From the sequence record PQ249395: a stretch of 64,000 bases of DNA; one strand, written 5' to 3'. Of the stretch, positions 60,620 through 64,000 are shown one piece after another. The position numbers and the translations under genes are program-made. The notes under the pieces were generated by a model. That model worked only from the letters and a program-made list of their open reading frames with translations, made no database searches and was not told the DNA's origin. Numbering within the stretch: the stretch's first letter is position 1; each line of letters opens with the position of its first letter. The stretch is from Escherichia phage Pu-Krd-SF1.

Positions 60620-61437
60620 ATGTAGTATATAAACTATCATTTATTAGTAGAATTAATGCTAAAACCCCGCCATATTATTATATTGGAAGTAAAACCAATT
60701 GCACTTTTGACGGAACGAATATTATTGATAAAAATGGTAAATTTTATTATTCGTCTTCGTCATCTTCCGAATTTCAAAAAGCCCTGTTGAAAGAAACGCC
60801 GAAAGTTGAAATATTATATTTTCAATTAGTCGGAGATGAACAAATAACTAGCATTGAAGCTGAATTTCAAAAGAATATAGAAAAAGATATATGGAATAAA
60901 GAGTATTTCAATTTAGCATATGCTGACGGTCAATTTACAACGTATGGTATTTCTCCTTCTAAAGAAACTAGAGAAAAGCAATCAATAACCATGATTAAAA
61001 GAAATCGTAATAAAGGTAAAAATCATGGATTTTATGGAAAGCATCATACTAATTTAGCCAGAAAGAAAATATCAGAAGCTTCTAAAAAATACTGGAAAGA
61101 AAATCCACATCGTGGATTTTCGCATACAAAGGAAGCTAAAATTAAAATTGGAATTTCATCTTCTATCAGGCATAAAGGAAGTGGAAATCCGATGTATGGT
61201 GTAAAACCTTGGAAAACTCCGAGAGCAATTAAATCTGGTACTTGTATATTATGGTTAAAATACGCAGAAATTTTATATGATTATTTAAGTCCAGATTTTA
61301 AAAGTAAATCATCTATTTTTGCGGATTTAAACTTACCGAAATTTAGAATTGATAATTTCATCAAAAGGTTTAAAATGGGTTGGAACCCATATTTAGACGA
61401 AGAATTTCAAAAGGATAAATTAGAATTATGTCTTTAG
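60616..61437 (+). CDS. GIY-YIG homing endonuclease (seg-like) between gene 49 and nrdD
   Basis: VYKLSF…YYYIGSKT core plus NUMOD-like basic repeats; ATGA overlap with gene 49. Confidence 0.65.
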   Translation: MNVVYKLSFISRINAKTPPYYYIGSKTNCTFDGTNIIDKNGKFYYSSSSSSEFQKALLKETPKVEILYFQLVGDEQITSIEAEFQKNIEKDIWNKEYFNLAYADGQFTTYGISPSKETREKQSITMIKRNRNKGKNHGFYGKHHTNLARKKISEASKKYWKENPHRGFSHTKEAKIKIGISSSIRHKGSGNPMYGVKPWKTPRAIKSGTCILWLKYAEILYDYLSPDFKSKSSIFADLNLPKFRIDNFIKRFKMGWNPYLDEEFQKDKLELCL

Positions 61438-63245
61438 AGAAAGATGTTTTAAATTTTATTTCAAATAAAGATAAAGAATTAAATACCGAAAATGCCAACA
61501 AAGATTCTCGTGTCTTTCCAACAAAAAGAGATTTAATGGCTGGTATTGTTTCTAAACATATCGCTTGTAGTATTCTTCCAAGCCATATTGTAAATGCTCA
61601 TAACGTCGGATTAATTCATTTTCATGATTTAGATTACAGTATATCATTGCCTTTTACTAATTGCTGTTTAGTAGATTTAAAAGGAATGCTTGAGAACGGA
61701 TTTAAGCTCGGTAATGCACAGATTGAAACTCCTAAATCAATCGGTGTTGCTACTGCAATTATGGCACAAATTACTGCACAGGTTGCTTCACATCAGTACG
61801 GCGGAACGACTTTTGCTAATGTAGATAAAGTACTTTCTCCTTATGTTAAACGCACCTATGCAAAACATATTGAGGATGCAGAAAAATGGCAAATCGCTGA
61901 TGCGTTGAATTATGCCCAATCTAAAACAGAAAAAGACGTATACGATGCATTCCAAGCTTATGAATATGAAGTAAATACTCTCTTTAGTTCAAACGGACAA
62001 ACGCCTTTTGTGACAATTACATTTGGTACTGGAACTGACTGGACTGAACGAATGATTCAGAAAGCAATTCTGAAAAATCGTATTAAAGGTCTTGGTCGTG
62101 ATGGGATAACTCCTATTTTCCCTAAACTTGTTATGTTCGTTGAAGAAGGTGTTAATCTTTATAAAGACGATCCGAACTATGATATTAAGCAGCTTGCTCT
62201 AGAGTGTGCAAGCAAAAGAATGTATCCTGACATCATTTCGGCTAAGAACAATAAAGCTATCACTGGTTCATCTATTCCTGTTTCTCCAATGGGTTGTCGT
62301 AGTTTCTTGAGTGTATGGAAAGATTCGACTGGTAATGAAATTCTTGATGGACGTAATAATCTTGGTGTTGTAACACTGAATCTTCCTCGCATTGCATTAG
62401 ATTCTTATATTGGAACACAGTTCAATGAACAGAAATTTGCCAAATTGTTCAATGAACGAATGGATTTATGTTTTGAAGCTTTGATGTGTAGAATTAGTTC
62501 CTTAAAAGGAGTTAAAGCTACTGTTGCTCCTATTCTTTACCAAGAAGGTGCATTCGGGGTCCGTCTTAAACCTGATGATGACATAATTGAGTTATTTAAA
62601 AATGGTAGAAGTTCAGTGTCCCTAGGATACATCGGTATTCACGAATTGAATATTCTTGTCGGTCGTGATATTGGACAGGAAATTTTAACTAAAATGAATG
62701 CTCATCTTAAGCAGTGGACTGAAAGAACTGGTTTTGCTTTTAGTTTGTATTCTACACCTGCTGAAAACCTTTGTTATCGCTTCTGTAAACTTGATACTGA
62801 GAAATACGGAAGTGTAAAAGATGTTACTGATAAAGGCTGGTACACTAACAGTTTCCACGTTTCAGTAGAAGAAAATATTACTCCGTTTGAAAAGATTTCT
62901 CGCGAAGCCCCGTATCATTTCATTGCAACAGGCGGTCACATTTCTTATGTTGAACTTCCTGATATGAAAAATAACCTAAAAGGTCTTGAGGCTGTATGGG
63001 ATTATGCTGCACAACATTTAGATTATTTTGGTGTTAACATGCCAGTAGATAAATGTTTTACGTGTGGAAGCACTCATGAAATGACTCCTACTGAAAACGG
63101 ATTTGTTTGTTCTATTTGTGGAGAAACTGATCCTAAAAAGATGAACACAATAAGAAGAACTTGTGGTTATTTGGGAACTCCTAGCGTTGTTCCATGGAAT
63201 TTAGGTAAAATGAAAGAAATGGTAAAACGAGTAAAACATGCATAG
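61428..63245 (+). CDS. nrdD: anaerobic ribonucleoside-triphosphate reductase NrdD, uninterrupted
   Basis: 605 aa; C-terminal zinc ribbon CFTCG…CSICG and glycyl radical motif RRTCGYLG. Confidence 0.9.
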   Translation: MSLEKDVLNFISNKDKELNTENANKDSRVFPTKRDLMAGIVSKHIACSILPSHIVNAHNVGLIHFHDLDYSISLPFTNCCLVDLKGMLENGFKLGNAQIETPKSIGVATAIMAQITAQVASHQYGGTTFANVDKVLSPYVKRTYAKHIEDAEKWQIADALNYAQSKTEKDVYDAFQAYEYEVNTLFSSNGQTPFVTITFGTGTDWTERMIQKAILKNRIKGLGRDGITPIFPKLVMFVEEGVNLYKDDPNYDIKQLALECASKRMYPDIISAKNNKAITGSSIPVSPMGCRSFLSVWKDSTGNEILDGRNNLGVVTLNLPRIALDSYIGTQFNEQKFAKLFNERMDLCFEALMCRISSLKGVKATVAPILYQEGAFGVRLKPDDDIIELFKNGRSSVSLGYIGIHELNILVGRDIGQEILTKMNAHLKQWTERTGFAFSLYSTPAENLCYRFCKLDTEKYGSVKDVTDKGWYTNSFHVSVEENITPFEKISREAPYHFIATGGHISYVELPDMKNNLKGLEAVWDYAAQHLDYFGVNMPVDKCFTCGSTHEMTPTENGFVCSICGETDPKKMNTIRRTCGYLGTPSVVPWNLGKMKEMVKRVKHA

Positions 63246-64000
63246 GTATTATATAATTTATAAAATAACAAATATAATTAATTCAAAGGAATATATCGGT
63301 GCGCATAGCACCGATAACATAAATGACGGTTATATGGGGTCAGGAACACTGATTCGTGCCGCTTTATTAAAATATGGTAGAAAAAATTTTAATAAAGAAA
63401 TTTTACATGTTTTTGATAATGAAAAACAAATGTATGATAAAGAAGCTGAACTTGTAACCGAAGAGTATTGTCTAAAAGAAAATACATATAATATTAAACC
63501 TGGTGGAAAAGGTGGAACTGCCTATGAACAGACACTTGAACATCGCCGCAAAAATAGTTTAGCAAATAAAGGTAAAAAGAGAACAGAAGAAACTAAAATA
63601 GCTATTTCACGTGCTTTAAAGAAATATAAACGTACGCCAGAGCATCAAGCAAATTTAAATAAAGCCGTAAGCATAGCTATGAAGCGAAAAGATGTTAGAA
63701 GTAAATTAGCTGGAGAGCGGTCTGAGAAAGATAAATTATCTATATCAAACGGTGTTAAAAAATATTACAATTCTTTGAGTGAAGAAGAACGCGAACTTCA
63801 TCGCAAGCGAATTATTGAAGGTAAAAAGAATTCTCCCATGTCATTGGAATCTAGACAAAAGCTTTCAAAAGCTTTAAAAGGACTTCAAGTTGGTTCAAAA
63901 AATCCAATGTATGGAAAAATTTCTCCAACTAGCAAAACCGTTTCAGTTGACGGTATTAAATATGATTCAATTAAAAAGTGCTCAAATGCCATAAAAGTTT
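63238..64000 (+). CDS. GIY-YIG homing endonuclease (partial, runs off window end)
   Basis: ATG overlaps last nrdD codons; YIIYKITN…EYIGAHS core; paralog of the segB-like gene at 35539. Confidence 0.65.
   Translation, partial: MHRYYIIYKITNIINSKEYIGAHSTDNINDGYMGSGTLIRAALLKYGRKNFNKEILHVFDNEKQMYDKEAELVTEEYCLKENTYNIKPGGKGGTAYEQTLEHRRKNSLANKGKKRTEETKIAISRALKKYKRTPEHQANLNKAVSIAMKRKDVRSKLAGERSEKDKLSISNGVKKYYNSLSEEERELHRKRIIEGKKNSPMSLESRQKLSKALKGLQVGSKNPMYGKISPTSKTVSVDGIKYDSIKKCSNAIKV

Follow-up and report, generated by a model that had tools for sequence, protein, structure and literature searches.

The gene that overlaps the 3' end of nrdD in Escherichia phage Pu-Krd-SF1 (record PQ249395, analyzed here as a single window of 64,000 nucleotides, nt) is segH, and it is very probably a free-standing GIY-YIG homing endonuclease gene carried by a selfish cassette of 887 nt at the nrdD/nrdG junction of a Tequatrovirus. 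The element itself is already known, has borne its name since 2005 and is found here in its known position; the finding is thus real but ordinary. The locus is the 49-nrdD-nrdG region of a T4-like phage, with gene 49 (endonuclease VII) upstream of the nrdD region. Positions 60100-64000 of the window are 100% identical to Escherichia phages Pu-Krd-SF5, SF6 and SF7 (Tequatrovirus) and 96-98% identical to many other Tequatrovirus genomes. The coordinates of the features discussed below are collected in Table 1.

Identity and domains of SegH

The end of segH lies 68 nt past the end of the window, and the full length of the protein (276 residues) was taken from PQ759886, a record of 100% identity in which the segH stop overlaps the nrdG start by 4 nt. 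A search of the GenBank phage records with tblastn indicated that all 276 residues are identical to those of SegH from phage RB3 (AY262138.2), a record described as "Bacteriophage RB3 NrdD, SegH, NrdG" whose feature segH, SegH homing endonuclease, begins at the identical start codon. The gene order nrdD-segH-nrdG is common to PQ759886 and RB3, as are the overlaps of 8 and 4 nt. The two differ in genomic background only, the present phage having an extra SegG-like gene upstream of nrdD. SegH was named by Sandegren, Nord and Sjöberg (Nucleic Acids Res 2005, 33:6203), and according to the title of that paper, cited as B41 in a review of the mobile DNA of T4 (PMC2988022), segH replaces mobC. The record of Escherichia phage HY03 also names its copy SegH. 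Several other records carry the label "segD" or "hypothetical protein" instead, for which segH is the correct one.

The original prediction, made from the letters of the window, had a GIY-YIG gene starting 8 nt before the nrdD stop, and both halves of that statement hold. The ATG of segH is at 63238 and the TAG of nrdD ends at 63245, an overlap of exactly 8 nt. Residues 1-100 of SegH match SegE_GIY-YIG (PF19835) with 31.0 bits, above the cut-off of 25. Furthermore, the protein carries NUMOD3, matches PHROG 314 ("homing endonuclease") at 2.4e-60 and has a C-terminus that weakly matches the DNA-binding domain I-TevI_DNA-bd. The motifs YIIY (residues 5-8) and YIG (residues 19-21) are present in the translation, and, when SegH is aligned with the SegB-like, SegG-like and I-TevII proteins, Glu69 (E69) and Asn85 (N85) are the same in all four. 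The gene is of the free-standing seg type: it lies between nrdD and nrdG with an ATG and a stop of its own, and no intron model matches. A PDB sequence search with SegH gave nothing significant and did not reach I-TevI, and a scan of IMG/VR for relatives returned distant matches to the catalytic domain, at no more than 54% identity, and zero orthologues.

Inside segH, over the YIG codons, window positions 63294-63316 form a perfect 9-bp stem with a 5-nt loop (TATCGGTGC GCATA GCACCGATA); the 126 nt around this stem fold at just z=-1.9.

Table 1. Coordinates, on the window of 64,000 nt, of the genes and sites considered in the text.
Feature	Coordinates	Strand	Remarks
segH, free-standing gene of a probable GIY-YIG homing endonuclease	63238..64000	+	first 254/276 codons in window
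Divergent nrdD 3' end, left part of the cassette	63178..63245	+	last 21-22 codons, GTPSVVPWNLGKMKEMVKRVKHA; 39/68 nt identical to SF4
Codons of the glycyl-radical motif C-G-Y-L-G	63163..63177	+	the cassette begins directly 3' of these codons
Empty site of the T4-type group I intron	61965..61966	+	junction ...GCTTATGAAT / ATGAAGTAAAT...; MAFFT alignment of window, T4 and Lv5cm nrdD
nrdD, large subunit of anaerobic (class III) ribonucleotide reductase	61428..63245	+	open reading frame (ORF) of 605 aa, intron-less
Unnamed seg-type (SegG-like) gene between gene 49 and nrdD	60616..61437	+	273 aa, 10-nt overlap with nrdD start
segB-like ORF	35539-36204		between tRNA-Tyr and tRNA-Arg

Anatomy of the cassette

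The limits of the cassette can be read from a sister phage of the same isolation series, Pu-Krd-SF4, which presents the empty site. There, nrdD abuts nrdG with an ATGA overlap, and the flanks are identical to those of the window phage over nt 1-1750 of nrdD (1750/1750) and over nrdG (471/471). Between these flanks, 887 nt of the window phage (63178 to about 64064, that is, to 64 nt beyond the end of the window) stand for 64 nt in SF4, which are the last ones before the nrdG ATG in the allele devoid of the endonuclease gene. The comparison of SF6 with SF4 thus gives a presence/absence polymorphism at one site with sharp boundaries. On the left, the cassette begins directly after the CGYLG glycyl-radical codons; on the right, it stops exactly at the nrdG ATG. 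SF4 (empty) and SF5, SF6 and SF7 (with segH) form a natural pair with identical nrdD/nrdG flanks in the regions compared, which would be convenient for measuring homing and co-conversion by SegH.

NrdD retains its full length of 605 residues because the last 21-22 codons are provided, in a divergent version, by the cassette itself, and both host genes remain intact because the cassette ends exactly at the nrdG start codon. The tail borne by the cassette takes the place of GNPNERGFNLGKNKEIMHRVKHQ, which T4 and SF4 have in common, and 11 of its 22 residues differ from those of T4 and SF4. A donor of this tail was not found; the NrdD tails of the Slopekvirus and Pseudotevenvirus phages with SegH homologues resemble the canonical type and not that of the cassette.

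Conservation and spread of segH

Compared with RB3, the cassette has 2 mismatches in about 900 nt, both silent, while the flanks are 4-5% divergent in nrdD and about 10% divergent at the 5' end of nrdG. The same profile is seen among eight phages with segH. In bins of 60 nt, pairs of these phages differ on average by 0-2.5% in the cassette, by 1-7% within nrdD and by as much as 11.5% within nrdG, the divergent nrdD tail being nearly invariant. Greater conservation of the cassette than of the DNA on either side would be expected of a homing element, and this contrast points to horizontal spread.

In the phage collection, segH occurs in 69 records and mobC, the rarer of the two, in 32. The other 423 records matching the segH query align, among the matches listed, only to its 35 nt of nrdG start. 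Homologues of SegH at 47% identity are found directly 3' of nrdD in a Slopekvirus and a Pseudotevenvirus phage, where a gap of 53 nt separates them from nrdD, with no overlap and with canonical NrdD tails. The SegH-like proteins of Klebsiella phage KLB3 (Slopekvirus) and Enterobacter phage PF-CE2 (Pseudotevenvirus; 2405-3310 of its locus, L031) are one residue apart, and the two phages, despite their different genera, agree at all of the 180 nt shown over the end of nrdD and the beginning of the endonuclease gene.

An alternative is that segH is a decaying or domesticated remnant which has ceased to act as a mobile endonuclease and is kept only since its removal would harm the nrdD tail or the coupled nrdG start. 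Indeed, a precise deletion is unlikely, since the last 21-22 codons of nrdD exist in the cassette alone and the segH stop overlaps the nrdG ATG, and the passage on such embedding in the T4 review describes it as a mechanism of retention (PMC2988022). Furthermore, the SegG-like gene of SF4, described below, is annotated as shorter, probably through a frameshift, which suggests decay of such genes in the lineage. However, the segH ORF is intact and its product 100% identical to that of RB3, with both nucleotide differences silent; the conserved Glu and Asn positions are retained; and the greater conservation of the cassette than of its flanks, in eight backgrounds, indicates recent spread. We therefore judge a remnant improbable.

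Expression and proposed homing of segH

No late promoter (TATAAATA) is present in the 11.9-kb locus, sigma-70-like sites in the segH locus are not above chance, and scans around segH for promoters, terminators, late promoters, repeats and folding gave nothing beyond chance. The nrdD message may yield small amounts of SegH, with ribosomes re-initiating at the overlapping ATG, an account that the T4 review offers where it deals with overlapping seg and mob genes (PMC2988022). During a mixed infection, SegH would cut a co-infecting genome devoid of segH near the nrdD/nrdG junction, and repair by recombination from the segH-bearing genome would copy the cassette and part of the adjacent DNA into the recipient, in a process of homing with co-conversion. 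The divergent nrdD tail may be donor DNA carried along in this way, or a change that makes the carrier less prone to cleavage. The SegH study is said to have found cleavage near the locus of the gene itself and homing in mixed infections. What is stated here about cleavage and homing by SegH is drawn from the title of the 2005 paper, the summary in the review and what that study reportedly found.

Several points weigh against this picture of segH as a homing endonuclease gene in a spreading cassette. The generic Pfam model GIY-YIG (PF01541) scores SegH at 16.5 bits, below its cut-off of 22.6. The cassette does vary, with the proteins of HY03 and SHFML-26 at 97.8-98.9% identity, and some copies therefore predate a very recent sweep. 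Finally, in the SegH study, DNA containing segH was reportedly cut as well as DNA devoid of it, which would argue against the divergent nrdD tail as strict self-immunity.

Position relative to mobC and to the I-TevII intron of T4

In T4, gene 49 is followed by nrdD, whose two exons are separated by the intron that encodes I-TevII, then by mobC and nrdG, and the occupant of the nrdD/nrdG junction is mobC, of the HNH family. Like segH, mobC lies at this junction, has no promoter and overlaps the nrdD stop, but its product has no detectable similarity to SegH (BLASTP E=0.55) and, in contrast to the segH-bearing phages, T4 retains the canonical nrdD tail. Moreover, T4 mobC starts with ATGAATTATGACAGAATCTAT, a near copy of the nrdG start ATGAATTATGATAGAATTTAT, and a duplication of the first ~20 nt of nrdG therefore seems to have come with its insertion. 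The table of the T4 review records no activity for mobC (PMC2988022).

The intron of T4 is situated elsewhere. Its 1033 nt, with I-TevII, were placed by MAFFT after nt 538 of nrdD, which corresponds in the window to the junction between 61965 and 61966, that is, 1273 nt upstream of the segH ATG. In addition, the intron and segH assort independently: both are present in Salmonella phage Lv5cm and Escherichia phage HY03; segH occupies the junction of an intron-free locus in EC121, ECO4, PM133 and SHFML-26; T4 combines the intron with mobC; and Pu-Krd-SF4 has no intron and an empty junction.

These observations bear on a further proposal of the original prediction, that the endonuclease sits where T4 has an intron-encoded one, and do not sustain it. 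In its strong form, this proposal makes the seg-type gene a free-standing counterpart of I-TevII that occupies or serves the intron site of an intron-less nrdD, for example by having that site as its target. I-TevII and SegH do both belong to the GIY-YIG superfamily, are both associated with nrdD and optional among T-even phages, and are distantly related (30% identity over 128 residues, pairwise E=4e-6). However, I-TevII is intron-encoded and absent from this window, its site is distant from segH, the segH position is taken by mobC in T4, an intron with an I-TevII-like ORF coexists with segH in Lv5cm and HY03, and the cassette is bounded by the 3' end of nrdD and the ATG of nrdG, away from the intron site. 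Such a relationship is thus very unlikely. The nrdD gene of the window phage is simply without the separate, optional group I intron that carries I-TevII, and segH belongs to a cassette of its own.

The intron of Lv5cm nrdD (4867-5911 of its locus, L002) occupies the site of that of T4, yet is 64% identical to it (675/1052 columns). In HY03, nrdD is split, with an ORF in between.

An uninterrupted nrdD

That nrdD is a single uninterrupted frame of 605 codons with the glycyl-radical motif, as first described, is borne out by the ORF and by Pfam, in which the product matches NRDD from end to end (E=1.4e-170) and Gly_radical with E=7e-25; RRTCGYLG is present in the translation. The alignment with T4 across the exon junctions pairs the 605 residues of the window with the 605 of spliced T4 with zero gaps, 561/605 being identical, and the gene length of 1818 nt is exactly that of spliced T4 nrdD, gap-free at both the DNA and the protein level.

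A scan with Rfam of 58000-64000, which includes all of nrdD (61428-63245), gave no match at E<=1, RF00028 included, while the T4 nrdD intron used as a control scored 105 bits on RF00028. At its gathering threshold, however, RF00028 missed the divergent intron of Lv5cm, and the conclusion of no intron therefore rests on collinearity rather than on Rfam. No group I intron of the T4 type (nt 538) was found in nrdD by either approach, the gene being gap-free against spliced T4 and without a match to RF00028. Although Rfam can miss divergent phage introns, as it did in Lv5cm, a cryptic or degenerate intron or other insertion hidden in nrdD can be dismissed with near certainty, since a gene of the spliced T4 length with zero gaps leaves no room for it and no Rfam match was obtained.

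A SegG-like gene upstream of nrdD

A second seg-type gene, still unnamed, precedes nrdD in the window. Its product carries NUMOD3 and has a match in PHROG 7504 ("homing endonuclease") at 5.9e-34; with T4 SegG it shares about 40% identity over 126 residues. The gene is found at >=90% identity (that is, at least 90%) in 48 records and is not in T4; a literature search on this upstream gene found no description of it. Over the first ~220 nt of nrdD (61428-61650), identity is 62-65% between three loci with the SegG-like gene and five without it, and the differences of NrdD from T4 cluster at residues 2-73 because this divergent nrdD 5' end accompanies the SegG-like gene.

In SF4, the SegG-like gene is annotated as shorter (3517-4254 of the SF4 locus, L005) and the region has one base more than its counterpart in the window; this extra base suggests a frameshift, and hence decay of the gene.

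As far as the sequences tell, a seg-type cassette thus lies on either side of nrdD, and each of the two comes with its own form of the nrdD end that it adjoins. The recoded ends illustrate how free-standing endonuclease genes may remodel an essential gene without breaking it. It is conceivable, though we would rather doubt it, that the replaced nrdD ends are self-protective changes of the target sites and that the SegG-like gene encodes an active homing endonuclease aimed at the nrdD 5' end. If so, nrdD, with its intron, would be a three-site hotspot for selfish endonucleases.

The segB-like gene and the tRNA cluster

The original prediction had also called the downstream gene a close paralog of the segB-like gene of the tRNA cluster, which is correct for one part of the protein only. 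SegH and the segB-like product are 54% identical over the first 93 residues (E=2e-31), the catalytic domain, and the C-terminal remainder is not alignable. The two genes encode a common catalytic module joined to unrelated DNA-binding halves, which is the usual pattern of the seg family and not close paralogy. SegH resembles both T4 SegB and the segB-like protein of the window in its catalytic GIY-YIG domain, its match to PHROG 314 and its free-standing gene, and differs from them in the C-terminal half and in the insertion site and presumed target, which are the tRNA cluster for the latter and the nrdD/nrdG junction for SegH.

Directly upstream of tRNA-Leu, window positions 34257-34889 (+ strand) hold an ORF of 210 residues with an HNH-type motif (DHIDGNNKNH...CPNCH), and the tRNA cluster therefore adjoins a mob-like gene in addition to the segB-like gene.

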